DNA of 64,000 bases, taken from Obrimoposthia wandeli (lineage: Eukaryota). Below, in pieces: positions 2,442-57,500 of the stretch (position 1 is the first letter of the stretch; each line of letters begins with the position of its first letter). Made by a program: the position numbers and the translations under genes. The stretch is taken from NCBI GenBank assembly GCA_977020255.1, contig CDROCS010004090.1:62001-126000 (forward strand), read 5' to 3'. The notes under the pieces were generated by a model that did not search any database, was not told the DNA's origin, and worked only from the letters and a program-made list of their open reading frames with translations.

Positions 2442-2696
2442 ACGGTTTTATTTTTTGATTTTTTTAAGTTTAGTTTTTTTTAATTTTAGATCCCTATTTT
2501 GACTCTAACTTTTTGTTATTTCAATACTTTTTTAGGTTGGACCTTATCTTTGCTAACATATTTCATTGTGATGTTGTGATTAATAAATGTATTAAAAAAA
2601 TTTGTCTTATGTCTTTTATTATTTTACCCTTATATTTTTAGAGATTTAAAATATAATTCAAAATAAAACATTAAAAATATTTATTTTTATAACACA

Positions 2697-3036
2697 CTAA
2701 TCGTTTTGCAACGATAACCATAAAATACATAAATGTCCACAGTTTCTCGTCGCTGGATTCTGATATTGTATCTTGTTGTAAAATACTCTTCTTCGTCCTT
2801 TTTGAATAGTCGAAACACGTTTGTGTGGATAATACATTGCAAGTGGATTAAATACATGTATTGTCCACTCTCTAACATAAATAGCTATCCAATGTTCTCC
2901 TGGTAAATTCGAAGTATGAGTATTGATAATGTAACCTCCAGATTGAAAAAATGAAATCATATCAATAGGATAAACTCCATTGAATTTATCACCCAGGACC
3001 TTCTCTGCTGATTCTTGTACTTGTACTGAACTAAAT
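2697..3036 (-). pseudogene. Adenain-like (adenovirus-type) cysteine protease
   Basis: FNGVYPID..YIINTHTSNLPGEHWIAIY..VFNP..QYQ..NCGHLC, showing the His/Asp(here Asn)/Gln/Cys arrangement of adenain. The frame is open upstream of the ATG at 2960 to ~3036, and the original start appears lost. Confidence 0.88.
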
Positions 3037-3082
3037 AAAAATTAATATATATATATATATTTAAAAAATGTCTTACTTCATT

Positions 3083-4308: not shown

Positions 4309-4367
4309 TTTACAAATATTGTTCCTTCAACTTTCTTACGTTTGTTTATATTGATTTTTTGCTTCTT

Positions 4368-4682
4368 TTAACTTTTAAATCCACTACCTCCTTGGCTTTT
4401 ATTTGATTTATGTTTGCTAATCAAATTAGCAACTTCAGGTAAAACATTATCAAGTTCATCAAGCGCATGCTTCTTAAAAGTTGGTATTAGTTTATTGTCC
4501 TTAGATGAAAGGTAATCCTTTTCTAATTTTGATATAAATCGCCTGAGTCTCTTTAAAAGAGGAAAGGCAAATCTACCTAATGTTCTAAGCCAGCCAGATC
4601 CATATTGTTTACCAACAAAATATGGTAATTCTCCACCTTGTTGGCTTTGACTATAAGCTTCAATTATTGCTGGATTCGCCAA
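4368..4682 (-). CDS. Small Polinton virion core/cement-like protein with glycine cleavage-type motifs and an amphipathic helix
   Basis: 104-aa ORF with QQGGE, QYGSGWLRTLGRFAFPLLKRL and QGGSG. It lies between penton and MCP, where Polintons usually carry such an ORF. Confidence 0.65.
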   Translation of the reverse strand: MANPAIIEAYSQSQQGGELPYFVGKQYGSGWLRTLGRFAFPLLKRLRRFISKLEKDYLSSKDNKLIPTFKKHALDELDNVLPEVANLISKHKSNKSQGGSGFKS

Positions 4683-5688
4683 TTTGTTTTCTTAAATGTA
4701 TTGTTAAACTTGTCTTGGCCCCGTACATGAAATCTATTAGTTGTCCGGAATCATCTCTAATATTTAATTCAATATTGTTTATAGAAAAGAGAGAAACTGG
4801 AAGATACATTGGTTGATCTATACACATACCGACAGCGTCCCCATATCTAGTTTCATTTTTAGATATCCATATTGTTCTCAAAAGTGGAACTCGCTGTCCT
4901 CCTACAAGCGTTGGTTCTATTAAATTAGTATAAATATATAAATGATTAACAGCATTTAAAAGTTTTGCCTTATTTTTTTTAGCTTTTATGGTTTTCAAAG
5001 GTATTTCTGTTTAAATCAAGGTTTTTAGCGAGTTTATCATCAAATAAAACTCGTATTATATTTCTCTTTACTGTAAACGTTATTTTACGATTTTTTAATG
5101 TTACACATTTATCAAAAAATTCACTACATTCCTTCTGTATTAATTTACAGAAATTCACTTCACTATCTAATTTATAATCTTTTGAAAACATTTTCAGTTC
5201 CACTACATACGTTGGTCTCGTTTCAACTAAAAACACTTTTGTTACTCTATCAGGAACATTTTTAAACGATTTAGATGAGGCTATATCAGATCACTTCATA
5301 CCTACTTCTCTGCTTTTCTGTCAGATCCAAATATAATTTGAATAGGTTTTGAAAAATGTTTTAGTCGATTTTTAAATCTGACTTTGTTTTTTTCATATAT
5401 TACTTTCACTTCTTTATCTATACAATTGTAATAGAATTTCCCTTTACTATCAAACCCAATCACAACTTCAATTGATTTTTCATGATCAACTTCTTTTGTA
5501 AACGAAATATGTGAGTTTTTTCTGATAGTAATTGGAGAATAATAAAAGGAAAATTCTGTTAAAGCCGCTTCCCATTCTCCTTGGAGATTTATAGGATTTT
5601 CCCAATCGATAATAAAGCTACTAGCGTAATTATCAGGTTGAGTCTTCGGACATCCGTTACTAGGTAAAACCATATACATAGACTTCAT
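4660..5688 (-). pseudogene. Minor capsid protein (penton-like, single jelly-roll), frameshifted
   Basis: N-terminal MYMVLPSN..INLQGEWEAALTEFSF (5302-5688), a middle fragment (4979-5236), and C-terminal LYIYTNLIEPTLVGGQRVPLLR..MYLPV..IELNIRDDSG..TIHLRK (4660-4998). Confidence 0.88.
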
Positions 5689-6713
5689 ATTATATTAGAT
5701 GCTGATATCCAAGATGGATCTGAATAACCATGCCATTTAACATATTATTGTTTATGTTTACCAGCACCCTTAGATTTTAATATATTTTGAATACGGAAAA
5801 CGCTCGGTTTATTTGATATTACTTGTAGTTCTTGCTCGTAAAATTTACCGTGAACGAAATTATTGTCAGCATCTTTAATAGTATACATTATTGGATTACT
5901 CTTTTGATCAATTTTACTTATACAAAATATTTCATCGCTCCAATACTGATCAAAGTTTTTAATAAATGGAGAAGAGATTATTTTCGAAATTCGGACATAT
6001 TCGTTTTTCTTATATTTAGCTTTTTTAATATTTTCTTTTTTATTCCTGCCCATCCAAATATCCATATAATTTTTATTAGTAACATCAACAGATCTCATTC
6101 TCTTGAGACCTCTATGTTCCGAGTGATTATATGCATGTATTATTTTAGGTAAAACTTGGATCCATTTTTTATTTCCTTCTATTGTGAAATACTTTTTTAT
6201 TCGATCTCTTAAAGTACGATTAAATCTTTCTACTACTGCTGCTTTATACTGTGAAAACACAGAGTAGTGATTTATATTATTTTGTTTAAATAAAGATTGA
6301 ACTTGCTTATTATAAAATTCTTTTCCTAAATCAGTTTGCACATTTTGTGGAATGTCCTCTTTTAATATTTCTTTAATGGCTTCAAGCATAGCTATTGAAG
6401 ACTTTGATTTAACTGGAATTGCACGAGCAAACCTGCTAAATACATCAATACATGTTAAAATATATCGATATCCCTTATTAATGGAAGAATATGGGATCAT
6501 CTCCATCAAATCCATTTGCCATAAATTATTAGGACCGCTGGTTTTGTAAGCTCTAGTTGGAAACCTTCTTCTCATCGGCTTGTTCAGACTGTAGGCTAAC
6601 TGGTTGCTCAACCATTTCTGCGTTTTCTTGTATTTTTGTTTTGTTCTTTTTGCTAATTTTGAAACTCCGGTGTAGCCAATTGGATCTTTTGGGTTGAACC
6701 ATATCTTCTCCAT
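5685..6713 (-). pseudogene. Retroviral-like DDE integrase with C-terminal chromodomain
   Basis: 322-aa ORF with LWQMDL, LTCIDVFSR, VQTDLGKEF and VVERFNRTL. After one in-frame TAA (5745-5747) the frame continues YVKWHGYSDPSWIS (chromodomain-like) to a TGA that overlaps the penton ATG. Confidence 0.93.
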
Positions 6714-6771
6714 TACAACAATTTGAATAGAAAGAAAATTTTAATTTAGGTAAAGAAGGGTTAGCACCCAT
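6553..6771 (-). CDS. Small ORF with a predicted N-myristoylation motif (MGANPS) and a CC pair, overlapping the 5' end of the integrase gene in another frame
   Basis: 72-aa ORF MGANPSLPKLKFSFYSNCCNG...; it overlaps integrase over 6553-6713. Expression is not demonstrated. Confidence 0.45.
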   Translation of the reverse strand: MGANPSLPKLKFSFYSNCCNGEDMVQPKRSNWLHRSFKISKKNKTKIQENAEMVEQPVSLQSEQADEKKVSN

Positions 6772-6799
6772 ATTTTTAGCTGATTTTATAAATAATTGT

Positions 6800-7130
6800 T
6801 TATGATCGTGTCGCAGCTATAATACTACTGATAATTGAAGCAACAACTGGAATAACAGCCCCTATGAAACCACCATTCTGTTTAAGAATAATTTTTCATT
6901 TCCTTTTTTTACTTTTTAAATTAGCAATATCTAGAAGAGTTTTTCTATATTTCTTTAATATATTTTTCCGATTTCCAACTTTTACTCGACCCAAAACTAT
7001 TTTATACAAAACTTTCAATAAATCATCTACAACAAAGTATGGAAAATTTTTAAGAATATAATAATCTCTTATGAGAAGAGGCTTTGACTAAAGCTTTAAA
7101 ATAGGGTATGCTTCTTTGTATTTTCTTCAT
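6800..7130 (-). pseudogene. pX-like small basic protein with a hydrophobic C-terminal tail
   Basis: Manual translation: MKKIQRSIPYFKALVKASSHKR / YILKNFPYFVVDDLLKVLYKIVLGRVKV..KKYRKTLLDIANLKSKKRK*KIILKQNGGFIGAVIPVVASIISSIIAATRS*, with one frameshift and one stop. The GGF-hydrophobic tail resembles adenovirus pX and the corresponding Polinton protein. Confidence 0.75.
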
Positions 7131-7145
7131 TTTAATAAAAAAGGT

Positions 7146-7302
7146 TCAATTTAAATATTGTTTATATTCGAAGACATTTAAGTTTTTTTTTATTTCTAAC
7201 TACAGATTTGATTAATTTTTTCACTTCTTTTTTCTTAATGATTCTTTTGTTTGATTTCTTAGGCTTTGCTTTACGTTTTACTATCAACTTCGTAAAAGGC
7301 AT
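7146..7302 (-). pseudogene. Very small lysine-rich ORF (possible DNA-condensing core protein), frameshifted
   Basis: MPF../IVKRKAKPKKSNKRIIKKKEVKKLIKSVVRNKKNLNVFEYKQYLN*, lying between the ATPase and pX-like genes. AT-rich DNA can produce K-rich frames by chance. Confidence 0.3.
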
Positions 7303-7309
7303 TGTAAAT

Positions 7310-7957
7310 TTATCTTTTATAATTGTTCTTTATTTGTTTATAAACAGTTACTCCCTTAAAATTAAATATGTCGGTTAAAACACGTAAATCATCTGGGCAA
7401 GCTTGTGTAAAGTCAATAAATATATACCCATGTGCTTGTTTAGCAGCATCGTGGAATGAATCAACTAGAAAGTTCTTATTTTGGGGAAATGCCTGTCTGG
7501 CCACGAAATCAACAACGGTTTGATCTCTAGGATTTTTAAATAAAACTAAGTAATGTACATTAAGATTTCTTGTTCTATGGTGACCTCCTTGGTGAAAAAG
7601 ATTTTGAGTGATAAATATAACTGTTACATCACGATGTCTTGCAATCTTCGTAAATAAATTATTAAAGTTCGATTCCTTGTTAGTTTCCTGATACAAATCA
7701 TCAATTATTATTACATCTTCTTTTTTCAATCTTTCACACCAATTTGCATCAAATCCTTCAATAAATTGTATTCCCTTCAACTTACAAACTTATGTTTTGG
7801 TTAATCTGCTTTCCCTTCCTCCACCATGATGCCAATAAATATTTTTGAAACTAGATTTGAAAAGAGATTCATTTTGCAACAATTTACAGACGAAATGTGT
7901 CTTTCCACTTCCACTTGGGCCAACTATTTGAAATACAGCATTATTATTTAGCTCCAT
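7310..7957 (-). pseudogene. A32/FtsK-like genome-packaging ATPase
   Basis: The ATG at 7957 gives MELNNNAVFQIVGPSGSGKT (Walker A). One in-frame TAA near 7790 is followed by VIIIDD (Walker B), IARHRDVTVIFITQN and YLVLFKNPRD. Confidence 0.93.
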
Positions 7958-14421: not shown

Positions 14422-17400
14422 CTATGCCTGGTCAAGTCCAGCCTTCTTTTCCTCGATAACGTAGATGAGAAGTCGCCACATTTTCATAACAAATATATCG
14501 GCTTCTTCCTCCAAGATCTGAAGAGACGAAATAAAACCATCAGAAATGCAAAGTTCGAAAATAAAACAAATGTTTCGATTAAAGTTTATTCCATGTCTCT
14601 GAGAAATCTTGTATGAAAAAATTCACGTATACTCACCACAGCGATATCTGCTAGGATCTGGTCGGGCGTCTTATGCTCAAGCACTTGATCGCAGATAAAT
14701 TGTGACAAGGACGGCTCGTCCTCCCCAATGTAGGTCACGATCTTCTTCTTCACCCAGGGCTTGATGCGACTGTCCACGAAGGCCTGAATGAGTATTTGTG
14801 ATCAATAGCATTCGAGGATCACATAAGTTATCCTAAAAACTCCCTTTTTGAACCGCAATTTGTTAGTCATAAACATTTAATTAAGACCAAAGGTGGACTT
14901 AATAAAATGGTGCGGGTTGTTCATGTTTTTATAAACATTGAAACTTAAAGAATGAAATAAATATACATATTCACATTTTTCTAAAACATCATAATCATCC
15001 TGCTCTTCGATTTTGAGAAGAATGTCAAAGGATTTAAGTTGAATCTCAACATCGTAATTACATGGACTTTCAAATTCCGTATGATCATCACTTGTCACTT
15101 TGTGTTCTTTGACTTCATCCGCATTTATATAAAAATTAATCCCGATTGTATGAAATACATTTTTAATTTTCTCTACCAACAAATATGTCTATGCTAAATC
15201 AATTCATTGTACAATTTCTTCATTATTATATTCCTCGAAGTCATTTGTTATTACGATATATTTACAGAAAAATCCAAAGCTTGGCCTATTAAGTTAATTC
15301 ACCAGGAATCATTACAATTAATGTTTTCATTTATTTTTCTCATTCTCAGTTTTATGACCAGGTGCAGCATCAAAAATGTTTTTTATCGAAGAAAAATTTA
15401 GATTCAATACACTTTTATGAACCATAATTCAATTTCGGGTGAAACCATTTTTTTGATAAAGCTGGAAGTTTTGGAGGATATGCAATTTTGTCAGACCGCT
15501 CAAACAAAAGCTAGGTAGATGTATATTCAACATTTACCATACTAGTAGAATCGGGTGGAACACAATCTTCTAGCTAAAATTTATTTCAATTTCACTGCTG
15601 ATATTAGCCCAGAAATAACATGCTCCACATGTATTTCATCTTCCATGACATACCTGGTGACTCCATCAATTGGAGAAATCATGACCCAATATGTAATTGA
15701 TGAACTTCAATAGTGTTTAATCTATAGCATACGAATTTTCTCTGCTGTAAATAAATATACTCTGCAAATCGATTAGCAAAGCATTTTAAATGGAACGATG
15801 CTTCACTTCTAAAACTGATGTTGATGCATAATCATCCGCCAATAGTCCTTGCACGATCGTATTTTTCCATGGCTTCATACCTTCTGGATACAACCCTTTG
15901 TTAACAGATGAAACATATAAACAAACATCTTGGCTTATTTTGTGTTGGGATCTGTAATGATCATCTGCAACTTTCTGTTTTCTGCTCATTGGAAATACTC
16001 TTTTCGCTATGATCTCTTACTGGTTAACATGGAGGCACTGACAAAGTTTAAAAACAATGTGTCCAGTCTAATGAAGGCGATGATTGCTTTGTATACTTAT
16101 CACTAAAATTTCTCCTTGTTTTTCACAATCAGATGTTACTACAGAAGAAATTGCAGCGGCGATTGGTATTCCACTCTATTTAAAATGCTACAAAAAATCA
16201 TGATAATGATTTATTAAAACGACTTTTATTAAAATCCACGGGAAGATCGCAAAAACCCTGTTGGTAGATTAGTAAAATATGCAAGTCATATTCAAAATAC
16301 GAATTTACGAGATGACTAGTAGAATCGATAATGTTTACTACTTTTTAACGAAATGGATTTAAAAGATTCCAAAATTAATTGGGGATTTCCTGAAATTTCC
16401 ATTGGTTATGAAAGTCATGGCAGACATTTTGCGATTTGCTTAGAAAACAATCTCAAACATTATATGGAAAAGAATAAAGTATTAGTTATTCCTAGAAAGG
16501 AACATATAATAAAAAAGAAATACTATTACGTCATGACGATATATTTATATTGTTAGAATATTGTTTAAAAACCGTCGATTGCACATATCATGTCACATTT
16601 TCAGATTAATAATTAGAAATGAAGTCTTTTTCGTAGAAAAATGTGTGGACTTCTTTAATTTTATTGTTAACTTATCACACAAAAATATCGTCAGTGATAC
16701 TTTCTTAAACACTTACGCTATCAACCATATCCCATTCGATCTTGTAGGCGAACAAGTCCGCCTTGCTTGTGGGGATGCTGTCTATGATCTGCTTCACCAG
16801 CAATCTGCGGTCTACGACACTCGCTTCTATGGTCTCTGTTGAGTTTACTGTTTCCGGCTCGGTCAGTGTTGCAGGAGCGACAGGCTTACTCTCAACAGGC
16901 TCTACAGTCAGCGGTAACGCTTCTTGCTAGAAGAGAGAAACACTTAGATAATATATGAACATTACATAAAGTCGACAAAAATTGAGTACTAATCGACGCA
17001 ATAAGTCCCCTATTTATTCAAATAAAAATGTTTAAGGTATTAATTTGTATAATTAATGATTAATAATAGTTTTAGAAACTAATTAGAAAAGTTGCTGATT
17101 TGTATATTAAGATTTCAGAAGACACATCAATATGTTCCTGTTTAGAAAATACTGCAGTTAACTACTTAAAGTTGCTGATTTGTATATTAAGATTTCAGAA
17201 GACACATCAATATGTTCCTGTTTAGAAAATACTGCAGTTAACTACTCAAAGTTGCTGATTTTTAAAGCACCTTTAAAAATTAAGTATTTTTACAAGTATT
17301 AAGAAATTTACGCTAAAATAATTATATATTTCGTTAATTCATTTTGTAAAACGCAAATTATATTGAACTCAAAAATAAAAGTGAATACAAATATTTATTT

Positions 17401-20400
17401 TTAATCAAATTTTACTAGTGTTTATTTCAACTGTCTACTAGAAACATTTATAATTATTGGAATTGAATGTCTATTGAATCATCACTTTTACCATTTCTTC
17501 GTTTGTTTTTCTTTCATACATCAATATATATGCTCAATAAATTATTTTCACTACTACTCCCTCTTTAAGTAATCAAACTTCCTAAAATAAGAGGTATACT
17601 AAACTTTCCATTTATTGTACAAAACTATTTTGTTTGAAAAAATGTTTAGAAAATACTGCAGTTAACTACTTAAAGTTGCTGATTTGTATATTAAGATTTC
17701 AGAAGACACAACAAGACGTTCCTGTTTAGAAAATACTGCAGTTAACTACTCAAAGTTGCTGATTTTTAAAGCACCTTTAAAAATTAAGTATTTTTACAAG
17801 TATTAAGAAATTTACGCTAAAATAATTATATATTTCGTTAATTCATTTTGTAAAACGCAAATTATATTGAACTCAAAAATAAAAGTGAATACAAATATTT
17901 ATTTTTAATCAAATTTTACTAGTGTTTATTTCAACTGTCTACTAGAAACATTTATAATTATTGGAATTGAATGTCTATTAAATCATCACTTTTACCATTT
18001 CTTCGTTTGTTTTTCTTTCATACATCAATATATATGCTCAATAAATTATTTTCACTACTACTCCCTCTTTAAGTAATCAAACTTCCTAAAATAAGAGGTA
18101 TACTAAACTTTCCATTTATTGTACAAAACTATTTTGTTTGAAAAAATGTTTAGAAAGTATTATTGACGAAAATATTTACATGGCTCATAAATGATGATTG
18201 GTTTCATAAAACTGAAAAAAATTGTATTATCAGTGTAATGATATATATTTTAAAAATTTCCACATTTTTGTTATTTGATTCATATTTGAGTTTGTCAATC
18301 ATGAGTTTCTTTTTCTCATCAAAGAAATAATGGGCAGAAATATTTTCACAGGACATAAAATGAGTAAAATTGGAAAATAAATAATGATCAACTAAAAGAA
18401 GCCTGTAACGCAAACTCTATTTAGACCAGTGCCCGGGAAACTTTTCATTTGGCGGGCCAAAATGTAGATTTTTTGAACGCTCGGGGCCAGAAATGCGAAA
18501 AAAAAACCAAAGTTCATAAAAAATCCCTAAAACAACCACATGACAGGGCTAAAAAGACTGTATTTCAAGTATAACTGTACAATTCCTGAAAATGGGATGG
18601 ATGGAACTGCTTCTTCTGATTCATAATAGCACATATGTCTGGTTTCATCCCCGAGGAAGCGATTCTCAGAGTGTTTTCCAAATGTTCATCTGAAATAGAG
18701 TTTCTGTTCTTCGATTTTGAGTACTTCAACTTGGAAAAGAATTGCTCACAGAGATAAGTGCTGCCGAACAGCGTCACTGTTTTCATTGCATGATGAAGAA
18801 GGTTCGGAGAAGATTCATCAGAGACACAGTCTTTGTAGAACTCGACTAGTGGTTTTGACAAGAATTGTGCACTCAAATCCATATTGTTCTGCAGATCAAT
18901 CAATTCTAACTGCAGATTCGTGGGAGCTGTCACTGGATCAACAGAAAAAGGCATTGAGAAGATCTTGAAGTCATTTTCGTTTGCCCGAAACTCTTGAAAA
19001 CGCCGAGAAAACTCTGCTGTGAGTTTTTCGATTTCAGTGGAGTATCTTCCTCCTTCTGGCTTCAATTCTTTCTGACCTTTCAGACAAGGGAAATGATCGA
19101 AAACATTGTTCTCCAATTAACCTTTCCAAAGAAGCAGCTTGGCTTCAAACGACTTGATATCATCAAAGAGATTGTGAACGAGTTTGTCCTTTCCCTGCAT
19201 AGACACATTCAATTGATTCAACTTTTCAGTAATGTCGACCAAGGCAAAGTCGCAGAGCCACTGTTCATCGGAGAATTCCAGTAGAGGCCTTCCTTTCGAC
19301 TCCATGAACTGTGCAATTTCTTCTCTCAGCTCCCACATCCGTTTCAGAGTGCGCCCTCTACTCAGCCATCTCACTTGAGAAAAGTACAGAACGTCTTTGT
19401 AATTCGCAGCCAATTCCTCCAAAAGTTCTTTGAATTGGCGATGATTCAGTGCCCGAGCACGGATGAAATTCACAGTTGATAATATTTTAGCCATGATTTC
19501 CTGGAAACCAATGACCTTCGTGCACAAAGATTCTTGGTGTATGATGCAGTGGCACCATATCAACGTTTGGGGAATGTTTCTGGTTTGGAGCTCTTTCTTT
19601 AACATGCCTTGAAATCCTTTCTGCTCCCCAACCATTGCAGGTGCACCATCTGTGGCAATTCCAACGAGTTTTTCATAATTCAAATTCGCTTTCTTCATTG
19701 CTGAATCACACTCCTGAAAAACGTCCTTTCCGGTACAAGTGTCCTTCATGGGGCACAGAGCAAGAAGTTCCTCAGTTATATTGAACTCATCATCAACACC
19801 TCGCACGAAAATGGCCAACTGAGCAGTATCTGAAATGTCCGTGCTCTCGTCAAGTGCCAAGGAAAACACTTTAAACTGAGAGGCTGCTGTGTGCAACTGG
19901 TCAGAGAGATTTTTTGACAATTCCTCGATCCTCGTACCGATTGTCCTAGCACTCAGGTTGAGACTGTTTAAAATAGGAGCTTTCTCTGGGCACATTGAGT
20001 CAAAAACTGCTTTCACACACTCTTTCACAAACTCTCCGTCACTGAATGGTTTCATCCTCTTTGCAATTATCTCTGAAACTACGTAGCTCGCCTTTGTGGA
20101 TTTTTTGAATTCTCCTTCTGATTTGGTAAACACATTTTGTTGAGATGACAGCTTTCCCTTCAGTTCTTTGACTTTCACAGCTCTTTGTTCTCCTTGCCAC
20201 TCATCAAACTTGGAAGAGTGTTTTGACATGTAATGACGTTTGACATTGCTTACTTTGGCAACAGCGATCGTTTCTGTGCATATAAGGCAGACAATGTTTC
20301 CTCTGTTCTCCACAAAAAAATAGTCTCTTGTCCAGTCCTCATTAAACGCACGATTTTCAGAGTCAACTTTACGTTTCTTGAATGCCATTTTTACATTGGT

Positions 20401-42500: not shown

Positions 42501-45500
42501 GAATAATATTTTAAATATTTTGAGGATTTATAATTATGGCAGAAACTGTAATTTAATATACCTTTTTCTCTTTTAAATCACAATTATAATTTGAAGAAGT
42601 AGATAAGGCACGGCAAAATTATATAGTAATAAATCTTATGTCTATCACTGTTGAAGTTTTATAGGTAAAATTAATTTTATATCAAATTTAGCACTTATGA
42701 TTTTTATGAAATAACAATTAATTTTTGTTGTTAATTAAAATTTTATATTTTTATATTACATTTTTGAACATAATAGTTAAATAATATAATTTTATTAAAT
42801 TAAACAAAGTGTTATTTTATTTATTTTTATTTTATATTTTACATTATATTATATAATTTATTGTGTATTTATTAAAAAATACAATACTATATAATTTGTT
42901 TATAAAATTGGTTTTGAGCTGGTAAAAAAATTATAAAATTTTAATTATATATAAAACAGATTTTTCAATATTTAACTTGTAAAACTTTTATATCTGCCTT
43001 AAATTTGTATCTAACTTTAAATTCGTTACTGTTGCTTAGTTAAAAGGAGTTTAAAATTGATTTTTCTTTTAAATGTTAAATGTTTCTTCATTTCGTAATT
43101 TTTTTCCAGTCAATCCTAATATTTAAATGATTGTTTATATTTTAATTAAAATTGAAAATGATTTTACAAAAAAGAATTATATAAAGTTTAATAAAAAGTT
43201 ATTATTAAATAAATATATAAAATTCTTAGATTAAATGTAATAATTTTACCAATTAATTAAATTAATCTAACTAAATTCCAATTAAAACACTTATTCTACT
43301 TGTGTTATTTGTTATATCCATTCTTTAACATGATTATTGTTCGTAGATTGGACTTTATTTTCCTATACCACCATTTCGAAATTTGATGTATGTAATTTTA
43401 AATCGAAAGTTGTATCAATTTTTTATATTGTTCAGGTAAATATTTCCAAACAAACATTTTTAAAAATAACTTAACTAGAAATACCTTTTAAAAAATATTA
43501 TGTATAAATTCATTAAAAATAACCCTAAAATTCCAACGAATAAAATACAAAAATCCAAATTTTATTAAAAATATGGTGCACAGTATATACGAAGGAGCCT
43601 AAAATCAAAATCTATTTCGCATATTTTGAATTGTCTCAATAATTCTAAAAATGCAGTTGGTATTTCACCAATATCGCTTTTATTGTCGTCTTCATCATTC
43701 CAGTTTTCATTGCCATGGTTGATTATTTTCTTAACAATGATTTAGCTTTTCAAATGCAATTAATAAAAAAGGTCTGACACATCCTTACACGTACTGTTGG
43801 AGGTTTGGCTTTTCATAACTTTCCTCCTTTAGTGAATAAATGAAAGGCATTGATCATTCCTTCACCATGTTCCAAATGTTGGCCTGAATCGTTTGTTGAC
43901 AGATATTTCTAATGACTGTAATATATTTGTAAGATCTCCAGATACGACTGTAATAAAGTAATATAATTTTGCACAATTCTTTCCACGTTCAGCAAATGTA
44001 ATAGAGTATAGTCATAAATAAAAAAAGACACTGGTTTATTTTTTTATTTTAATTTTAAAGCTTTAATTAAAATATAAATAATAAATGAAGATTAAAAAAA
44101 TACGTAAATTAAAATAAACAAAAAGAACTAATTGTATCATTCATTTAATTATGGCGTCATAATTGGATAATATTTTAGTAAGCATTACAAGGCTTTCTAA
44201 TATAATAAAATTCTTAAGGTGCAAATCATTCACGGGTGCATATTATAATCGGAATTTTAGGGTAAGTCATTCAAAAGATTGTTCCAAAATTGGAACAATT
44301 CTTATTAACGAGTTAATTGCATTTTTAATGCATAAAATACTACAAGAAAAATATTCATTGAAGTCATTGTTTGGATCGATGTTTTACTTATCTAAATTTA
44401 CTACTCAAACAAATCTCTCTTCAGGTAACAGGTCAGAATGTTGGACCCTTAAAGAAGATCAGAATATGGCATAACAAAGCTGGAGTTGCTTCTGCCTGGC
44501 ATTTAGAAAAGGTTGGATATTAATTTAATTTTTTAATGTGTGGTAAATAAATGTTGAAGGTAATATTATTTTCAACATAAACTATCTTGTTTCCTTCATT
44601 GAACAAATTGATTAGAAAAACAATAGTAAAAATTCTTGATTGAAAGATCTCATTTTTAAAAAGTGAAATACTCAAAAGTTTAATAATTTTCGTTAAATAA
44701 TAAAATTGACAAAAAAAAATTCTATATATATTTTTTGATTTAAATGCAAAAAGTGCTGGTTCAAGCTAAATAAAAATGTGTTGGTCTTTGTTCTCTTTAT
44801 TTAATACCGTTCATCTGAACAAATGGATAAATAGGTATACTTAGCATTATAATTGCAAAACGAACTTAATAAAGAACTTTTTCATATTTTAATCTAAACT
44901 AAATATTTTAATATCACTAATTAAAATTTCATCGTGTTGAAAAGTTATTTTTTCGACTAAAAAATACTGTTACGTTACTTAATGTACTTTTAGTTTCGAG
45001 ACTGTTTTTGTTGCTCTTAAAAGCTTTGAAATGTAAATGTTGACTTTATCTGATAGGAAATACTTCAAGTTGAATTTGTATAAATGAATTTGTATTAAAA
45101 CATAATTCTTAATCGCTGAAAAATTGTTGTTAATATGAGCTAGCCGAGAATCAATCTTCTCTCTTTATATATAGGCCTCGAGGTAATTAATATAGCAAAC
45201 CCGTAACGGATATTATGTATAGTTTAAAATGCTTGATTGATTGTGTTAAATTTTTTCAAAGTAGTATATAGTATCGGTACTAACTCAAAGGAACAACATG
45301 GTATTGCAGTAAAAGGTATATTGTCATTTTTAGACAGAATGTCGTTAAAATGTATAAATATAGCTTAAAATGACTCAAAATGACTCAAATTTCTACCTTT
45401 TTATTTCAAAATCTATTTGAGTTCGTATGTGTGATTTCCAGACTTGACCAAAAAGTCTTGAAATCGCTCATACTAACTCGATGGTAATAGGTCCCCCCAA

Positions 45501-48500
45501 GGGGTTACATTTTACCGTAAAAAACATTTTTGGCGTTGTATGCGTGATTTCAAGATCTATTTTCACATATGGCGTTAAATATCTTACTGTTTAAAACAAA
45601 ATGTGATTTCAAAACCATTTTCAAATATGGCTCTAAATATCTTTTCCGTTTTAAACAAGAGTAGATTTTGAGTAGATTTTAAGTAGATTTTAAGTAGATT
45701 TTAAGTGGCCAAAGTCTCCCTTACGGAGCCTCCTAAGAGGGAAGCCCTTCATCTGAAGATTTGGCAGCACCTTTGGCAAAGATTATATGTTATATTAATT
45801 TTGTTTATAGTTAAAGAATAATAAAATCAATTAATTATTTATTCATATAATAAATAACATTTAAACCAATAAATCATTTATTCATGTGATACTTTGATGT
45901 TAATGATATTGATATTCTTTAGGGTTGGTTCGAAGAGGGCTAAAGTACCTAGAGTCATAATGATGAAATGATTTTAAAACTAAAGTGTTTCGATTATATA
46001 AAAACCTAACTTCAATATAATTGGTCAACTAATCAAAATAATCCTATATAATAAATAAAACGATTAAACACAAATGTTCTTTATCATTATGTGTTAAAAG
46101 TAATTTAGGAGTTTTTGAGTTTGGTGGACACATCTTATGTGGTCCAATAGGTAAGTCATCAACTTTATCATGTATACAATCCGGATTATGTAAATATACT
46201 TCAACAAGAAAACCCCATACGGTTTTACTTAAATCCTTTTTACTTCCAACTAAATTCAAAATATAATCAAAATTATCATGCACCCATTTAAATTCCATAT
46301 GTGTTAAAGGTTGACTTAAAGCCCATCCGTATAAGTTATTCCTATCTATATAGAGAAGTGATGTATTATCATCGGACTTACAATAATGTTTATTAACAAA
46401 AGTCATACGTCCTCTAATACCTGCTTAAAAAAGATTAAACATTTCCGGATCATGTAGCAATTCTACTTTATGTTTTAATGATTTTATTGCACTACACCAG
46501 CTAAGACCGGGAATACTAATGAAATTAAGAGCCTCAAGATTATCATCCGATCTAACTTTTTGTCTAAAAGCCTCAAATACATTAAAAAGTAAGTATACAT
46601 CAAGACGCATATATTCCATCATATAGTCTTTAATATTAGTGTAAGCTAGTTTTGTCCACATTGTATGAGCTAAATTATATTTATCATCTGTAACACTATC
46701 AGGAAATTCACATTTTGGAGGTAATCTATCTTCATACAACTTAGATTCACTGGAAATATATTCATAGGGAAAAACACCTTTACTAGATATCAAATCAATA
46801 CTAAAATATCTTGATGTATACGGTGAACTTGGAAGATAATAACCAATCTTTCAAGACTAGTTGTTGTAAAAAGATATGAATCTAAAAATTTCAATGTTCC
46901 AGTTGATAATTCTATTTTGAGAGCCATAAACTTTTCACTAGATTTGGGTATGATTGAATAACTTTTCCCTTTTAATTTTGCAAATTTTAAAATATGATGA
47001 ATATCATAATCCATTAAGTTGTGAAAAAGTACTGGTAATATAAGTCTATTACCGAATCTACGATATAAATTACATTTATTACATGCTGCACCCAAGAATA
47101 CACCTGAAATATGATCATGATCCCGTACTAAATCTCTAGTGATTTTATAACAAAGGTAACATATGCGACTCTCTCGAAAAGCTAACCGATTTTCATTTGT
47201 ACATTATTAGCGGTGTATGCATATTATTTCGCCAAAAAGGTGCAACAATTTCATTAAGAATTTCCGTTATTTTATCAATAAAGTTGGTAGCACAATCTCA
47301 ACCGAAATACGAAAAGTATTCTATTGTGTCAGTAACATTATTTTTTAACAACATTCCAACTGCAATAGGAGTATGTATATGTTTAACATACACATCAGGT
47401 TCTAAAATACTTTCAAAATCAGCGTAAACTACAAAAGGAGGTTGAACTGACTTTGACCAATCTGTGAATTCACAATATTTATTATCCGGCATAGTGAATA
47501 AAGTTGTAGTATCAGTATTAAAATTGCAATGGATTTTATGTTTATCATAATCAGCCCCAGATCGAAAACCAAAAAGACATTTCGGACACCAGTAAAGGTG
47601 TAAACCATAACTATGACAATTAAATAATCTATTTAATTTAGGAACACTACAATAATGATAAGTGTTACAGTCTTCTAACAACAGTAAATTAACAATTTGA
47701 TTACATTCCCGTAGTTTTGTTAGGTAAATTATACTAACATCAGGATTTTTCAACACATCTTTAATCGGGTTTTTTTTTTTAATTTCAGAATACTTAAAAA
47801 CTGTAATTGATATTTGGTTATCACGTTCAAATTGAGGTATTGAGGCTAAGGGCATAGGACCTGGCTGACATTTTAACTCATTTAAATATTGACTGTAAGA
47901 AGATGATCGATCTCTATTTTGAACTTCATTATCATTTTTTAATACGCTAAGGATAGCATAGAGAAAACATTTATTATCGCTGTTATTTACATTGATTATT
48001 GCTCTTTTATATACTAATTTAAGTGGTGTTGGTATATATGAAGAACCCGAAACCCTAGATAATTTAGTTAATTTAAAGGAAATTTGTAATATTTTATAGA
48101 TTGACCAACCACTACTCAATTCCGAGTAGTTTTCAATACAATTATTTAACTTATCAGTTCTAATAACAATAAAATCATCATCGAAAACTGCAGCCTTACA
48201 ACTAAAACTCCATGTTTTAAATTGGTTTTCTATGTTTACAAATTGAGATTGAATACCAAATTGGATTTTACAAGGTCCAAATGCATTAATTTTATTTAAT
48301 AAATCATTTTTCATATCGTTATTAATAACCAGTTTCAGCATATTCTGGTAAGATGTAGTATCTAAAATAAGATTATCTTGAAGTGCATCACCTATTTGAG
48401 TACTTGTTATTGCTTCAAGGTCTACAGTTGCTATAAAATCATTATGTAATTCATCAACAAATGGCTTTTCATGTGTATAAAGTAAATCGTTAAAATCTAG

Positions 48501-51500
48501 AGATTCATTTAAATACTTATCTAATTCATTATCATCATTTAAAAATGAAGTGAAATCAAAATTAGGAGGAAATGTTGGACTATTAGGACGTGACCAACTA
48601 TCCACAACTTTGAAATCAAAATTATTATCCAGATTATCAACTGGTAGTATATTATTAATTGTTTCTAGTTTTATAACTTTATTACTTCTTGAAAGTGATG
48701 AAGATGATGATGATTTACGTTTATAATTTGATTTCTTGGTATTAAAGTAAGTTAAATGATTTTTATAAATTGAATAAAAATCTAAATATTTTATGTTTGT
48801 GAACAATATATCACACGAGGGACATATGTACCCGTTTTTAAACTTATATATTTTTCCATTACATCATGACAATTTAAGTCATGACAATTATTAGTACAAT
48901 AGTTATAAAGTTTACATGGTGGTGGGGAACCACCAAATACTTTAGGAAAAATACTTATTAATACGCCATCAAACAGTACATCAACTAACCTATCCTCAAA
49001 GTTAAATGATGTACCTAAACGACTAAAATATAATTTTTGGGTTCCATATATTGAGTAAATTTTCTCAGCTAAGTCTTTTATTAGAGCATCTTGAGTAAGT
49101 TTAATAACTTTAAAATAATTAAGTAAATTTGTGTTGATATTCATAAAACGACCATTAAAACTACAATTAACACCAAACATTTTAGGAAAAAACGGTGACA
49201 AGTACTCCGTCATACAAGACATCAATAACCTTGTCACAAAAATTAAAAAACTTGCAATTTTGTTTAAAATATAATTTGCGTGAACCAAACGCAGTATAAA
49301 TTTTTTTCAGCCAGGTCCCTAATTAGTTTATCAGGTTCAATTTTTATTTGTTTAACGGCATGCAATAAATCAGCATGAAATGTCAATTGTTGTAGCTCCT
49401 TTTTAATTTCCTTCTTTTTAAAACGTCGTTTTAGCTTATCTTTAAGACGCTTACCCTGTTTACCTAGCACTTTAACTTTAGTTATCGATTCTGCGTTAAT
49501 ATTATTTCGTGCATCACGATGATAATTTTTATATGGGGTTTTACTATCGCTATTATCAACTAAAAAATGTCTTATATCCTCGAAAGGAGATGTGTTTGGG
49601 CTTCCTAACGGTGTAACTGGATACTGTTTTTTGAATGAGAAATATTTAGTGTTATTACTGTTGTTGTTATTTTTAAAAGTGGATGATAACACCTCTATTA
49701 CGGAGCCGCCTAAAGCGGGGAGCCCTTTGTCCGTAGACCGGGCATCAATGTTACCATTATTAAAAAAATTAAAGTTTGTCATTATAAAAATATAATAATA
49801 GAGACAAGAGAGAGTCAAGGAGGCAAAAGAGATAATCAAATCAGGTCAGTTTCTAAAAAACTTCAATTTCTCAACTTTTCAATCGAATTCTCAACTTTTC
49901 AATTAGCAATTTCCAATCAAATTCAACTTCTTCAATTTTTCGTATTTCTAATAAATAATTCTAAATAAATCTGAATAAATGATAAAATAAAATTCCTTAC
50001 ATTAAAAAATCGTCAAACAGGTGCGATCATTAATGATAATATCTTGTTTATATACAAGATCAAAATACTGCAACGTAATATTTCATTAAAACAACTTACT
50101 TAAAAAAAACTATAATAAACGCCTACAACGTTGTATATTTTGAAAAATTCTTTTTTCAAATTTCTATTTTAGTGTTTGTAAAATTATTTTTTAAATCTTT
50201 AATATCATTTAAAATATTGTTTTTTAAATAAAACTCTTTACATAATTTAAATTTATATAAATTTTATATTCTAAAAATGTAAATAATATTTTAAAAATTT
50301 ACTTTTAATTGTTTGATTTATGTAATTTAGTATGATCATACAGTATTTTTAGAAATTTTAATTTTGAATTGATATTTTTTTATAAAGGTTTATCATTATT
50401 TTTATAAAACTAATTTGTAAACGATTGTAAAACATGTAATTTATAAATTTATTAACAATTTATAATCTTTATAAATATACTTTTATAAAATAAGTCGTTA
50501 AATAAGTCGAATTTATTTTTAGTTGTTTGTTTTATGTAATTTAAGATGATCATACAGTATTTTTAATACTGATACTACAACTTTATTCACTATTAATTCA
50601 CTTAAACATATACATACTCCCATTGCAGTTGGAATGTTGTTAAAAATAATGTTACTGACACAATAGAATACTTTTCGTATTTCGGTTGAGATTGTGCTAC
50701 CAATTTTATTGATAAATTAACGGAAATTCTTAATGAAATTGTTGCACCTTTTTGGCGAAATAATATGCATACACCGCTAATAATGTACAAATGAAAATCG
50801 GTTAGCTTTTCGAGAGAGTCGCATATGTTATCTTTGTTATAAAATCACTAGAGATTTAGTACGGGATCATGATCATATTTCAGGTTTATTCTTGGGTGCA
50901 GCATGTAATAAATGTAATTTATCTCGTAGATTCGATAATAGACTTATATTACCAGTACTTTTTCACAACTTAATGGGTTATGATATTCATCATATTTTAA
51001 AATTTGTAAAATTAAAAGGGAAAAGTTATTCAATCATACCCAAATCTAGTGAAAAGTTTATGGCTCTCAAAATAGAATTATCAACTGGAACATTGAAATT
51101 TTTAGATTCATATCTTTTTACAACAACTAGTCTTGAAAGATTGGTTAGTTATCTTCCAAGTTCACCGTATACATCAAGATATTTTAGTACTGATTTGATA
51201 TCTAGTAAAGGTGTTTTTCCCTATGAATATATTTCCAGTGAATCTAAGTTGTATGAAGATAGATTACCTCCAAAATGTGAATTTCCTGATAGTGTTACAG
51301 ATGATAAATATAATTTAGCTCATACAATGTGGACAAAACTAGCTTACACTAATATTAAAGACTATATGATGGAATATATGCGTCTTGATGTATACTTACT
51401 TTTTAATGTATTTGAGGCTTTTAGACAAAAAGTTAGATCGGATGATAATCTTGAGGCTCTTAATTTCATTAGTATTCCCGGTCTTAGCTGGTGTAGTGCA

Positions 51501-54500
51501 ATAAAATCATCAAAACATAAAGTAGAATTGCTACATGATCTGGAAATGTTTAATCTTTTTGAAGCAGGTATTAGAGGACGTATGACTTTTGTTAATAAAC
51601 ATTATTGTAAGTCCGATGATAATACATCACTTCTCTATATAGATAGGAATAACTTATACGGATGGGCTTTAAGTCAACCTTTACCACATATGGAATTTAA
51701 ATTGGTGCATGATAATTTTGATTTTATTTTGAATTTAGTTGGAAGTAAAAAGGATTTAAGTAAAACCGTATGGGGTTTTCTTGTTGAAGTATATTTACAT
51801 AATCCGGATCGTATATATGATAAAGTTGATGACTTACCTATTGGACCACATAAGATGTGTCCACCAAACTCAAAAACTCCTAAATTACTTTTAACACATA
51901 ATGATAAAGAATATTATGTAATACATTTCCGTTTACTACAATTCTATGTTTTTCTTGGTGCTGAAATCTTAAAAATTCATAGGGCTATTCAGTAAGTACC
52001 CGTTTTAAAACAATATATAGATTTTAATTCAAACAAGCGGGCAACTAGTGTTAATAAGTTTGAATATGAGTTTTACAAATTAAAAAATAATTCCTTTTAC
52101 GGTAAAACGGTTGAGAATCTTAAGATGCGACTTGATATTAGATTATGTAATAACGATAAACGGTTTGAAAAATTAATTTCGAGTTCTTGGTTTAAACGTC
52201 ATACTCAATTAAATGATGATTTAAATTTAGTTTTTATGCAGAAACAGGAAATATGTTTAGATTGGTCTTCATATATCGGTCAAGCTGTACTATATCTATC
52301 TAAATTACGAATGTATCAATTACAATATGTTGAGCTTGAACGGTATAGGCAAACTTTTAATTGTAGTATTATAATTGGAGCTATGGACACCGATTCGTTT
52401 TTCCTTGAATGCGTGAATATTAATAAGGATAAATTACTCAAAGAAATGATTAAAGGTGGGTATTTAGATACGAGTAATTATCCTAAAACACATCCCTTGA
52501 AAACGTTAAGGCCGTAATTGAAAAAATTTAAAGATGAACTGATTATAATGAATGGGTTTTCTTAAAACCAAAATGTTATTCACTTCAAAATAAATTAAGG
52601 GCTAAGAGTATTTCTTTAAAACAAACAAACTTAAGACATCAAGACTACCATATTGTTATGAAAATGAAGAAATTAATAGTGTTAATCAGTCACGTATATC
52701 ATCGGTTAACCATCAACTTCATACAACATTTACTTCTAAATTTGCTTTAAAATGTTTTGACGATAAAAGGAGATGGGTTTGTAAGAATAAAAGCCTTGCT
52801 TATGGTCATTTTAATTTAACTTAATAATTTTTAATAAGATATATAGTTTTGTTATTGTTGTTGTTATTTCATGTCATCATTTGTACACACACTCATTCAC
52901 TTGTATATATTAATATAACTTTTGTGTTTAATCGTTTTATTTATTATATAGGATCATTTTGATTAGTTGACCAATTATATTGAAGTTAGGTTTTTATATA
53001 ATCGAAACACTTTAGTTTTAAAATCATTTCATCATTATGACTTTAGGTACTTTAGACATGTTATGTGCTCTTCGAACCAACCCTAAAGAATATCAATATC
53101 ATTAACATCAAAGTATCACTTGAATGAATGATGTATTGGTTTAAATGTTATTTATCATATGAATAAATAATTAATTGATTTTATTATTCTTTAACTATAA
53201 ACAAAATTAATATAAAATATAATCTTTGCCAAAGGTGCTGCCCAGTCTTCGGATGAAGGGCTTCCCTCTTAGGAAGCTCCGTAAGGGAGACTTTGGCCAC
53301 TTAAAATCTACTTAAAATCTACTCAAAATCTACTCTTGTTTTAAACGGCAAGATATTTAGAGCTATAATTGAAAATGGTCTTAAAATCACCTTTTGTTTT
53401 AAACGGTAAGATATTTAGCGCCATATGGGAAAATAGATCTTGAAATCACGCATACAACGCCAAAACTGGTTTTGCAGTAAAAGATACCCCCGGGGGGACC
53501 TATTACCATTGAGTTAGTATGCGCGATTTCGAGACTTTTTGGTCAAGTCCGGAAATCACACATAGGAACTCAAATAGATTTTACAATAAAAAGGTAGAAA
53601 TTTGAGTCATTTTGAGTCATTTTAAGCTATTTTTAGACATTTTAACGACATTTTGTCTAAAAAATGACAATTTACAGAATTTTTTTAGACCACTATAGTG
53701 TTGGTACTAACTCAAAGGAACAATACGGTTTTGCAGTGAAAGGTACCCCCTTCTTAGTACCGACACTACATACTACTGTTGGGGTTTCTATATGAAACTG
53801 TGTTCTAATATAGATCCTCTGACTGTGGAGGGCCCCAACGTGAGTTCTATAGAAGCAGGACTTGTAGATGGTTGTGGCCTACTTAATGTTATGCTTGCCT
53901 GTCTCAATCTTATCTGAATGTTTGTTGTTTTGTTATGATCTTAAGGGTTTAGAACAATGCTTTCTAGTTGTAGGAAATCGTTTATTATTAACACACTAGA
54001 CTAACACGAATTAATACGTTTAAGTACGTATTCTAAAAATTTACAATAAAATTCCTAAGACTTCTATAAGTCTCTACACAAGTGGGGATGAACCACGTAT
54101 CGATTTTACTTCAGGTTTGGTTAGTTTATTAGAGTCCTTACTCAAAAAAGCGACAAATCAATTTATGGTTGGACTTTATACGTAAGTTTGCTGATTTGTT
54201 ATGATCCTAAAATCACTTCTACCTTCAACTCAATATTCCAACATAGTCGACAATTCAAATCGATTCAACTTTAATACTTCAATTTCACAAAAAACTCACG
54301 TTTCAATTCAGTTAATAATTTTAATTAATTTCACAAAAAACTTCACTTTTCAATTCAGTTGATGATTTAAATAAATTCACAAAAAACTTCACTACTTCTT
54401 ACACTAAATGGAGAGCCGTCCGTTGTCTGATTAGATAGATTCTTGTCTTCAGTGGTGCTGCTCGCGCTGTGTACTAAATTGGTAGCTGTCCGTTGTCAGA

Positions 54501-57500
54501 TTCGAGAGATTCTTGTCTTCAGTTCCAAATTCTCTCTGCTAGTTCCGCTCTCTGAACAATTTCTTCTCTCCGAATTCTCTCTGGTATTCTGTTTATATAT
54601 CTCTCCTGCAAGGAAAATAATCAATTAAATGTCACTTAACTAATTGATATTCACCTTGGCTGTCAGTCCCACGTGCTAATGAAATTGTCTGTCTCTATTA
54701 GCGGCTGGCTTACTTCTCAGCGGCTCAATCTTGCTTCTTCTTTTTATCGCTGCTTCTCTGTCCTAAACAAAATCAATCCTGCACTTAATTTTAAGTGCAC
54801 CTACCTCGCTGATGTGAATCCGGCTGGCGGTTCTCAGCGTCTTCTCGTATTGGGACGACGAAATTCAGATAGCGCTAATGGCGCTAATGGATTTTTCTTG
54901 GTTACTTGGGAATTAGTTTCGTCTGCTCTGCGTGCACTCTTCTTCGGAATTGACTTGCTAATTTCTAATCTTGATTTGGAAATTCTCTCTAGTTGGCCTT
55001 GTCTAACTGTTTATTATTGAGTTTTCTTGGCTAATTCTTTTTTGGGCGCTTTCTAATAATTTAAACTCCTATATATACTGCGCACTATACATGACCTTCG
55101 TGGTCCTTAATATTTAAAAAACTATTTTTATTTCGATTATTTAATTCTATTATAATTTTTATTTTAATTATAACCTTGCTTTCAAGGATTTTTATTTTGA
55201 TATAAATTCGATTAATTATTTAAAATTATTAAAACCTAATCCTAACACTACCTTTCAACCATATATAACCTATTCAAAACATTTAAAGACGATAACTTTG
55301 AACGAGCAAGATTGTAATTTGTGCTTAAGTGCCGGAGCTCACTTTGGAGATAAGAATTATAATTTCCAGATGTACCAATATGTTTTCGGTAAAAATGTGA
55401 CTCCTGATTATATCTTTAAACTTGACATGATTTGGGACAAATTGATACTTGCGACAAGAGCTATTTGTGCTAATGACAATGTGTAGAATGTTTTCGTCAT
55501 TGTCTCAAGACCCTGAAGTTTGCTTGTTATATAAAATAGCCTTGTTTCGACTTATCTTGATAAATGCTATTAAGGAAACGAACATTAAATACTTTGTTTG
55601 TGTTCCAATTTTTTTAAAGTTGCAATGAAATATTTGATGTTTGAAATATTATGTAAAGCTTTTTATGATGTTCTTTGGTAAGCTGTTGCATTGCATTAAA
55701 ATCTTTGATTTTATTCATCACTCGCTATAAACTGTTTGCCCTCGTGATCTATTCTTCAAGATAAAATCTCCTATATGGTTGTTTATGGAGTTTTAATTTG
55801 AAGAACGACCAGGCCAGTTCAATTGCTATATTTCACTTTCTTCTACCCAGACCCATTGTCAGTATCATTCTAATATTTCAGAAACTAGATAAGATTTCAA
55901 TACGTTTTGATTATAGTCGTATCAAAGTTCATAATATTTTTGACATTGCTTAAGTGACCTAAAATCATTACAGCTGTTATTACAGATCATTACAAACACA
56001 AAATGGCTTTTAAAGCTAATCTAGTGCAAAATTAACACCGGAAAGGATTTTGTTTATTAAATTTTCATTTTGGGAAACAGTAAATTGTATGAGCAAAATA
56101 TTTCAAAATACATCTAAGACTTATGTAAAAATTATGCTTTTAAGTAAGGTTTACACGATGTTTTCTATAGTGAAGAACAAAATTTCATTTAATTATACAA
56201 TTCCTAAATTATTTGCCATTATTTTCCTCGCTTTTAATTTTATATTTAAAATGAATTTTCTCTTTCTAATATTCTGTCTGTTGGGTATTGTCAATAATCT
56301 AGATCTTCTACTGGATATCTCCAAACTGAGCATTGCAATAATTGGATTTTGAATTGTCTAAAAGGAAATATTGATATATGTATTTATCTTTTTTTATGTA
56401 AAAATTATTAAGTAATTTATAACAAAATAGTTTTCATATTTTAAAATCAAATTTGATTTAATCATTTTTAAAGTATTTGTAAATTTGTAAAATATCATCA
56501 TTTGGTGAACTTTTCTATAAAGACGATTTTTTTTAAATAAACACCATGCAACTGTGAATGTTTATTTTTCAAAATTATTTTTTATTCAGGTGAAAATTAT
56601 TCGATACTTGACAAACAGAGAAATATTTATCACGATCGCAGTTATGAAGCGACAAGGAAAATTACCTATAGGCATGGACGTAGTCGATGGCAAAGTAATC
56701 ATAAATCCAATGGCTATTCAAGTAAGCTCATATATTTATTGCTTTAAATTTGTTTCAGTAACTTCATTTACAAAAATGTTATTAACGATAATTGCAAATG
56801 TGGCAATACTTTATCACACAAAATCATATCAAATACTTATTTCACAAAATACAATTTCAAAAACACGAGAACGCTAGAATAAACATTAGTAACTTCAAAT
56901 AACTACACACATTCATAAAATTCATTTTCTATACATCAAGCTTTAAACTACATATAATTAGATAATTCAAATTTGTTGTAATAATTGTTCAGGTTTTACG
57001 TTCATTTCGTTTAATTGCTCGTTCGTTTAATTTACATTTAATTTAGCATGTACTTTAAAATTGACATTTAATTTGTGAATTTGTTAAAATCAAAATACCA
57101 ATTTATTACTGATTAAGAAACTAGAGGAATAGTATGTTACACGTCAAAACTGATCTAATAATAAGTAAAGATCCTCTTATGAAACTATTATTAAATAATC
57201 TTAATTATTAATCATCGAATATCGCCAATGGAGTGCGTTTATTTTTGTATATGATTGGAAGAATTTGGATGATATTTTGTAACCACAAGTGGACCTAGTG
57301 ATTATTTTTCAAGTCAATCTTTTCATGTACATTCATAGTCATAAATTCATACTAACCTGATAAAGTATATCGAAGAGTTGACAGAATTATACGACTTTGT
57401 GAAGGTACAGATTTTAAAATGGATGAAGATAATGTTTTCAATGATCCTATTGAACAGCTTACATACTCTCATGAGCGGCCAAGAATGAATAATAGCCGAC

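Follow-up and report, generated by a model that had tools for sequence, protein, structure and literature searches.

A multi-copy Polinton lineage with copy-back architecture and without integrase in the genome of Obrimoposthia wandeli

The stretch of DNA analysed here, hereafter the window, comprises 64,000 nucleotides of Obrimoposthia wandeli (assembly GCA_977020255.1, contig CDROCS010004090.1, positions 62,001 to 126,000, forward strand), and belongs to an assembly of 1.35 Gb. Between window positions 45254 and 55258 lies a Polinton (Maverick), with its target-site duplications, whose polymerase-bearing end is present twice and in opposite orientations; an initial annotation, made from the letters of the window, had described it as a fold-back element at 45260-53777. 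Copies on other contigs are cited below by working handles (C3753 and the like). The features of the window element are as follows.

45254..45259, plus strand: left copy of the 6-bp target-site duplication (TSD) TTTCAA, matching 55253-55258.
45260..46074, minus strand: right end of the parent, with AGTAGT terminus, native terminal inverted repeat (TIR) of ~0.6 kb and subterminal DNA; of the terminal hairpin the first arm alone remains, and the TIR extent is taken from C1806 and C6600.
46073..46078, no strand: joint of a ~1-kb deletion that removes the 3' end of PolB, seen in the window copy only.
46075..49845, minus strand: protein-primed PolB with frameshifts and stops, 3' end cut; the start would lie near 49845.
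49846..50517, minus strand: AT-rich intergenic region (protease-PolB in parent copies, whose match extends to 50517), presumably the PolB promoter.
50510..50565, no strand: what remains (56 bp, source 50296-50351) of a directly repeated piece of the intergenic region, ~310 bp long in earlier-stage copies.
50561..50601, plus strand: fold-back joint, with the switch to the PolB sense strand at the 47523 equivalent and then the shared 96-bp deletion.
50602..52825, plus strand: added inverted copy of the PolB 3' part (PF03175, PF02945), without 5' part, with stops and frameshifts.
52826..53776, plus strand: added copy of subterminal DNA and TIR, terminal hairpin partly deleted, ending in ...ACTAC.
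53777..55247, no strand: secondary 1471-bp repeat with TG...CA ends and CTAC at 53773-53776 and 55248-55251.
55252..55258, plus strand: last Polinton base and right TSD TTTCAA (55253-55258).

The inverted duplication extends well beyond the TIR. Self-BLAST and global alignment (1315 columns) mirror 46073-47386 onto 50602-51915 at 98.4% identity, a second block (47491-47523 against 50561-50593) is identical at 33/33 positions in the alignment, and an outer block pairs 45316-46078 with 52917-53675 at 91.3%; the repeat had been annotated as 46075-47524 mirroring 50561-51920, and is borne out. The same can be said of the AGTAGT motif at the start of both element ends, of the missing N-terminal part of PolB in the right arm (the added copy holds the 3' part only), and of the gap in the left arm, annotated as 51921-52921 and placed by alignment at ~51916-52916 (~1 kb). 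The ~100-bp deletion described beside the breakpoint of the right arm amounts to 96 bases (19 + 77, flanking a 7-base island). The “left arm” corresponds to the native right end of the parent, including the full (broken) PolB gene, and the “right arm” is the added copy. The ~1-kb deletion at 46074 appears, from the alignments, to be private to the window copy: none of the other fetched loci aligns across this break, and the second shared junction predicted there was found in no other fetched copy.

The right boundary had to be moved. Directly outside 45260..53777 the flanking sequences differ (TTTCAA vs GTTGGG), and two separate insertions were considered as the explanation for the apparent absence of a TSD; this candidate was rejected once a high-copy repeat with TG...CA ends had been mapped at 53777-55247 (1471 bp, CTAC on both sides as a 4-bp duplication). 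This repeat is inserted one base inside the right Polinton terminus, and the true last base is 55252, not 53777. TTTCAA is found on its far side (45254-45259 and 55253-55258), so the window element has a 6-bp TSD, and this single TSD encloses both arms, in place of the independent TSDs that two truncated insertions were expected to carry. In many fetched loci copies of the repeat start at the 53777 equivalent and end near 55247; from its ends and the 4-bp duplication it is presumably solo-LTR-like (LTR, long terminal repeat). With TIRs bearing AGT-repeat termini and a 6-bp TSD, the window element shows the features of a Polinton/Maverick.

PolB is the sole gene between 45260 and 53777. Searches by tblastn with the open reading frames (ORFs) of a full-length relative gave PolB alone, with no match to integrase, ATPase, capsid or protease inside this interval, in agreement with the absence of these genes noted at the outset; the window's matches to all four lie at 2715-7939, in another element. 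The gene is broken in the window copy, and its product is 48-70% identical to the PolB of that relative; the added arm contains PF03175 (E=1.4e-15) and PF02945 (E=8.2e-5) according to Pfam. Two short ORFs, 48791-49306 and 49264-49845, are the 5' part of PolB (a natural 579-aa frame in C1013 spans window 49566-47811), and their reading as separate genes was rejected, neither having a Pfam match. Within this 5' part, a ~70-aa unit is duplicated at 48932-49307 (minus strand), one copy ending in GGS; we presume a ubiquitin-like fold for it, for which Pfam gave no match.

The relative used as annotation reference, C1544, represents another family (15.1 kb, 68% nucleotide identity in PolB); its genes are ordered as BIR+RING (inhibitor of apoptosis, IAP), A32-type ATPase (PF04665, E=1e-6) and rve integrase, followed by capsid and protease matches that are weak and below the Pfam cut-off. 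Copies of the window's own family run from the 50517 equivalent directly into the protease gene. This protease-intergenic junction has 51 matches, 20 of which were fetched: integrase, capsid and protease are ordered upstream in eight (C69, C227, C2101, C2330, C2333, C2397, C3815, C5722), and the remaining 12 are deleted or interrupted. Taking all fetched loci together, 28 bear the junction, and IAP, ATPase, integrase, capsid and protease lie upstream on a single strand in C227, C2101, C69 and C2397. The full-length parental family, for which a search had been proposed, is a canonical Polinton with IAP, ATPase, integrase, capsid, protease and PolB. Its native TIR measures ~0.6 kb (parent-type copies C1806 and C6600), and therefore PolB is not part of both parental ends, an objection that had been foreseen. 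The window PolB is 92-95% identical to parent-type copies, and the window-type terminal motif also occurs in the parent copies C2330, C1212 and C1369; termini and sequence are common to the gene-complete parent, as in a non-autonomous Polinton derivative. In the fold-back form, an inverted PolB end takes the place of all that lies to the left of the protease stop in the parent. It was also considered whether the parent might be short and non-palindromic, with an internal segment inverted; this was rejected because the parent has full length and many copies possess the 50560 joint. The first gene in both related families is IAP-like (L043 8823-9743, minus strand; BIR E=2e-13, RING E=6e-11).

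The window copy has many relatives with the same architecture. A 36-base PolB marker has 588 matches in the assembly at no more than two mismatches, and four junction markers gave 19, 31, 12 and 47 sites (reversed-pattern controls, 0). Their union, including three sites found by alignment, comprises 74 fold-back sites in 62 contigs, or ~51 after merging six duplicate groups; the proposed search for further copies of the 50560 junction was in this way successful, and the junction is found family-wide together with the 96-bp deletion. The inverted duplication is a family, not a one-off. A complete copy (C3753) measures 9.78 kb with 3.2-kb arms, and many others are further deleted, such as C989, of 3.9 kb with only an inverted PolB piece between two TIRs, or C1475, with its loop reduced to ~150 bp. 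An assembly artefact is hardly credible as the source of the inversion: the 46074 break is seen in the window only, and among the contig pieces listed from four public runs (short contigs, one sample) none spans the stretch, but the same multi-step joint is present in 62 contigs with ~3-6% divergence between copies, and a single TSD encloses the window copy. Since the junction appears, in diverged sequence, on as many as 62 contigs, misassembly is very improbable, and on these sequence grounds long reads contradicting the inversion are unlikely. At C4064 (L016 ~2200-2260, L015 ~5600-5660), AGTAGT is missing at both ends, which share the same ~40-base flank in inverted orientation.

Perfect and mutually different 6-bp TSDs were found in 7 of the 11 copies with both outer termini readable, a count that leaves out copies with a missing or overwritten end. 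These copies are the window, C3753, C2435, the C515 group, C2665, C1003 and C989, and the seven TSDs are TTTCAA, TGAAGT, AATCCT, GGATGA, CAGGAA, TGATAC and CTTAAG; two further copies (C140, C4993) match at 5/6 bases. The distinct TSDs (7/11) and ~51 loci show insertion as a unit at many sites after loss of the integrase. That one rearranged locus gave rise to the copies by segmental duplication or ectopic conversion, without new integrations, is very improbable and already largely refuted; a GGATGA flank common to six sites, thirteen sites in one array-like group and two identical insertions in C3753 would agree with it, but it is opposed by seven different perfect TSDs with unrelated flanks, by the ~51 loci left after merging duplicates and by terminal branches of ~2%. 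A fragment of the fold-back joint also occurs within a larger unit repeated 13 times over four contigs (C1549, C5829, C5507, C1316). Both ends being intact, the integrase lost and the TSDs fresh, a helper is implied, and helper Polinton proteins presumably integrate the fold-back form. As regards the original suggestion of integration and mobilisation in trans, the multi-copy spread with independent TSDs lends it support, and the helper itself is what we infer. At least 150 copies, with 99% PolB amino-acid identity, belong to a younger related Polinton family, the terminus of which resembles that of the window family; no opposite-strand PolB pair within 12 kb was found among its 150 PolB matches listed, these being the ones scored of 35,333 candidates. 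Judging from sequence resemblance, cross-mobilisation between both families is possible.

The joint itself occurs in stages. Its early form (12 sites) consists, in this order, of the inverted PolB arm, a direct intergenic duplicate ending at 50052, the final bases of the protease gene and the intact intergenic region; all 12 sites were fetched, and all have inverted PolB upstream and none the protease gene. Five of these copies carry a duplicate of ~310 bp and rejoin PolB at the 47523 equivalent, the 96-bp deletion not being present, and the others rejoin at ~47718 (2), 47497 (3), 47345 (1) and 46406 (1); a 7-base microhomology, TTTTAAT, is found at the common rejoin. In later forms the duplicate is shortened to 67 bp between AATTTATT repeats and the 96-bp deletion is added, and the window junction is the latest form, 11 bp shorter again. 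The main junction variants are each present at two or more sites, and therefore the defective form itself would have served as a template, and been replicated, more than once. In the PolB tree, five early-junction copies form a supported clade (98/95) near parent-type copies. A member of the TG...CA repeat family seen at the right terminus of the window element is also found in C1216, an early-stage copy, where it lies within the junction duplicate and likewise has a 4-bp duplication.

The fold-back form is a real, multi-copy, well-bounded non-autonomous Polinton lineage with copy-back architecture. Snap-back and copy-back had been proposed together, and the geometry decides in favour of the latter: one end is inversely duplicated around a unique loop (3.2-kb arms or stem, ~3.1-kb loop, as in the window), and this panhandle differs from a snap-back molecule, a near-perfect palindrome without loop. 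The observation that gave rise to this analysis is confirmed, and its interpretation is supported in part. Starting from the PolB-side terminus, the order is PolB backwards, the intergenic region to the protease stop, the intergenic re-copy, PolB forwards and the same terminus. We consider it reasonably probable that the window holds a decayed copy of a multi-copy integrase-less lineage founded by a copy-back template switch in replication, with helper-driven re-replication and integration likely. A polymerase initiating at the PolB-side terminus would have run through PolB and the adjoining intergenic region, slipped back to re-copy at least 310 bases of the latter, switched inside PolB to the complementary (its own nascent) strand, with the 7-base microhomology in the commonest form, and returned to the same terminus. 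Such a product would retain two good ends, which in the established model would be sufficient for Polinton initiation and integration. The deletions that followed at the joint would have been amplified one after another, which implies several replication rounds of the defective form.

The switch would have taken place in extrachromosomal replication and not on the chromosome. The joint is built solely of the element's own intergenic and PolB sequence with microhomology, and a chromosomal origin would look alike. A chromosomal founder, by deletion fusing opposite copies or by a stalled-fork switch within one copy, followed by mobilisation in trans, appears rather unlikely: host DNA, terminus or left-half sequence is absent from the joint in 12/12 early-junction copies, and both arms reach the same terminus. 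In its favour, many copies are interrupted by Polintons of two other families and nested or adjacent copies are common, and a direct duplicate at the joint is also typical of chromosomal template switching.

The arms of individual copies have been compared as well, using 101 PolB segments, 77 of which were retained after removing duplicate loci. In 9 of the 12 two-arm copies each arm has the other as its nearest sequence among all loci (0.4-4.3%), by a small margin in two copies, and in three this is not so; the median PolB divergence between loci is 5.3% (1965 pairs). C3753, C2435 and C4064 have their shared and arm-specific variants grouped in tracts (p <=0.002, runs test; a separate analysis pointed to these three as well); C5161 shows this weakly (p 0.047), and the other eight, the window copy among them, do not. 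Arm-shared and single-arm mutations are of similar classes (43 transversions, 21 transitions and 1 CpG vs 59, 22 and 2), and homogenisation therefore is not dated by them. It is likely due to conversion between the long arms, in the panhandle or in the chromosome, before or after insertion. Whatever its cause, TIR or arm identity may make an insertion look younger than its true age.

Several observations weigh against the replicative copy-back origin with mobilisation by a helper. Chromosomal events also yield templated duplications and microhomology joints, and Polintons are frequently nested in each other in this genome. No TSD is present in 2/11 readable copies (C501, C5079), and the PolB arms are broken in all copies examined (the window and six others). 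Tract-wise homogenisation is significant in just 3/12 two-arm copies (p 0.38 for the window copy), and assembly polishing could mimic homogenisation of the arms. The remainder of the PolB tree is largely unresolved, and one copy with the early junction, C1628, falls outside the early clade, beside a copy whose junction is not known. The 47523 and 47718 variants are not interconvertible by one deletion; hence either the founding joint exceeded both in length, or one arm was extended afterwards.

A broader reading, doubtful but conceivable, is that Polintons make copy-back defective genomes in the course of virus-like, protein-primed replication, and that the copies are a germline fossil series of one of these, with a single founding event, successive shortening over amplified generations, symmetry maintained through repair of the 3-kb panhandle, and an advantage over the helper because a replication origin is efficiently re-formed by the long stem. 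If true, a defective-interfering lineage of a DNA virus-like transposon would be recorded at ~50 host genome sites; the term “defective-interfering” is used here hypothetically, by analogy. Passive persistence, or a role as a hairpin-RNA source silencing the parent family, in either case without replication advantage, seems improbable. A transcript through both arms would form a PolB duplex of ~2.2 kb, and parent-type copies look somewhat older (median divergence 7.3% vs 5.3% in PolB segments, the regions compared being different), but the presumed promoter in the loop faces one arm only, a hairpin transcript needs an outside promoter, and no effect on the parent is visible in the data.

As in canonical Polintons, the family has protein-primed PolB, AGT-repeat termini and 6-bp TSDs, and its parent has ATPase, rve integrase, capsid and protease; the fold-back form differs in lacking these four genes, in its size (9.8 kb) and in its 3.2-kb arms, which include 2.2 kb of PolB. 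Non-autonomous Polintons have reportedly been described by Kapitonov and Jurka in 2006. Non-autonomous derivatives of DNA transposons in general also keep the parent ends, lose the integrating enzyme and are multi-copy with fresh TSDs, whereas here there is no simple internal deletion: the lost half has given way to the inverted kept end, and the joint passed through several stages, each amplified. Deletion derivatives of the kalilo plasmid in hairpin or duplex form (Vierula and Bertrand, 1992) and defective adenovirus DNA (Daniell and Mullenbach, 1978) are, going by the titles, reportedly on record; as leads only, they share the terminal-protein priming class and end-containing, self-folding molecules, but are extrachromosomal and transient, whereas the fold-back Polinton has entered nuclear DNA many times. 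In maize, Mu killer and Ac killer are inverted-duplication transposon derivatives at single loci that act by hairpin-RNA silencing; they likewise duplicate one transposon end inversely, and differ as single silencing loci from a mobile multi-copy lineage. Polintons replicate, in the established model, by end-initiated strand displacement. A copy-back lineage with staged joints and fresh TSDs is indirect evidence that Polintons replicate, starting at their ends, as free linear DNA, and also that Polinton proteins work in trans.

Polinton TIRs are given as 46-1,447 bp (PMC8097293) or 100-1,500 bp (PMC10748475), the strand-displacement model is cited for Polintons (10.64898/2026.07.28.741278), and their replication is stated to be known chiefly from sequence analysis (PMC10748475). 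Copy-back genomes are defined, in a source mainly on negative-strand RNA viruses, by a panhandle and a unique loop (PMC13506859); the fold-back form resembles them in these respects, in the copying back of one end and in a presumed dependence on a helper cycle, and differs as a double-stranded DNA virus-like element, germline-fixed at many sites and known from genomic fossils. For Caenorhabditis, PolB-end remnants beside a TIR are mentioned, and no fold-back family in the parts available (10.1101/2024.01.15.575659). Within the available text of the literature searched (including PMC3014272, PMC6431247, PMC1864894, PMC8504770 and PMC11071308), no copy-back Polinton derivative was found, and repeat libraries could hold one. 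Published screens require integrase beside PolB (PMC8097293) or five core proteins (PMC10748475), and would therefore miss the fold-back class; scanning for diverging PolB pairs offers an inexpensive new screen.

Some additional features of these elements deserve description. A strong hairpin lies ~7 bases inside each terminus (window 53690-53775; L009, L022, L057), with a stem of ~38 bp in the window family (z-scores for intact ends between -6 and -13 relative to mononucleotide shuffles); in the C1544 family the stem is near-perfect and reaches 75 bp (L043 9473-9672, minus strand; z -26). Stem variants are compensatory. Terminal palindromes are known from virophages and Polinton-like viruses mostly without protein-primed PolB (10.64898/2026.07.28.741278), whereas here they occur in Polintons that have it. 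Many deleted copies (C2665, C515, C1826, C516, C1044, C3780) end in a “mini-terminus” of 15-45 bases, the first hairpin arm, fused to internal sequence, with the TSD intact in some, which suggests that the terminal hairpin triggers deletions or template jumps. A third Polinton family is represented at window 6-7939, with PolB on the plus strand (6-2090) facing minus-strand protease, capsid, integrase and ATPase, and pieces of it interrupt many fold-back copies. Finally, window 17088-18159 holds a ~504-bp tandem duplication with 99% identity and an 80-bp sub-repeat.

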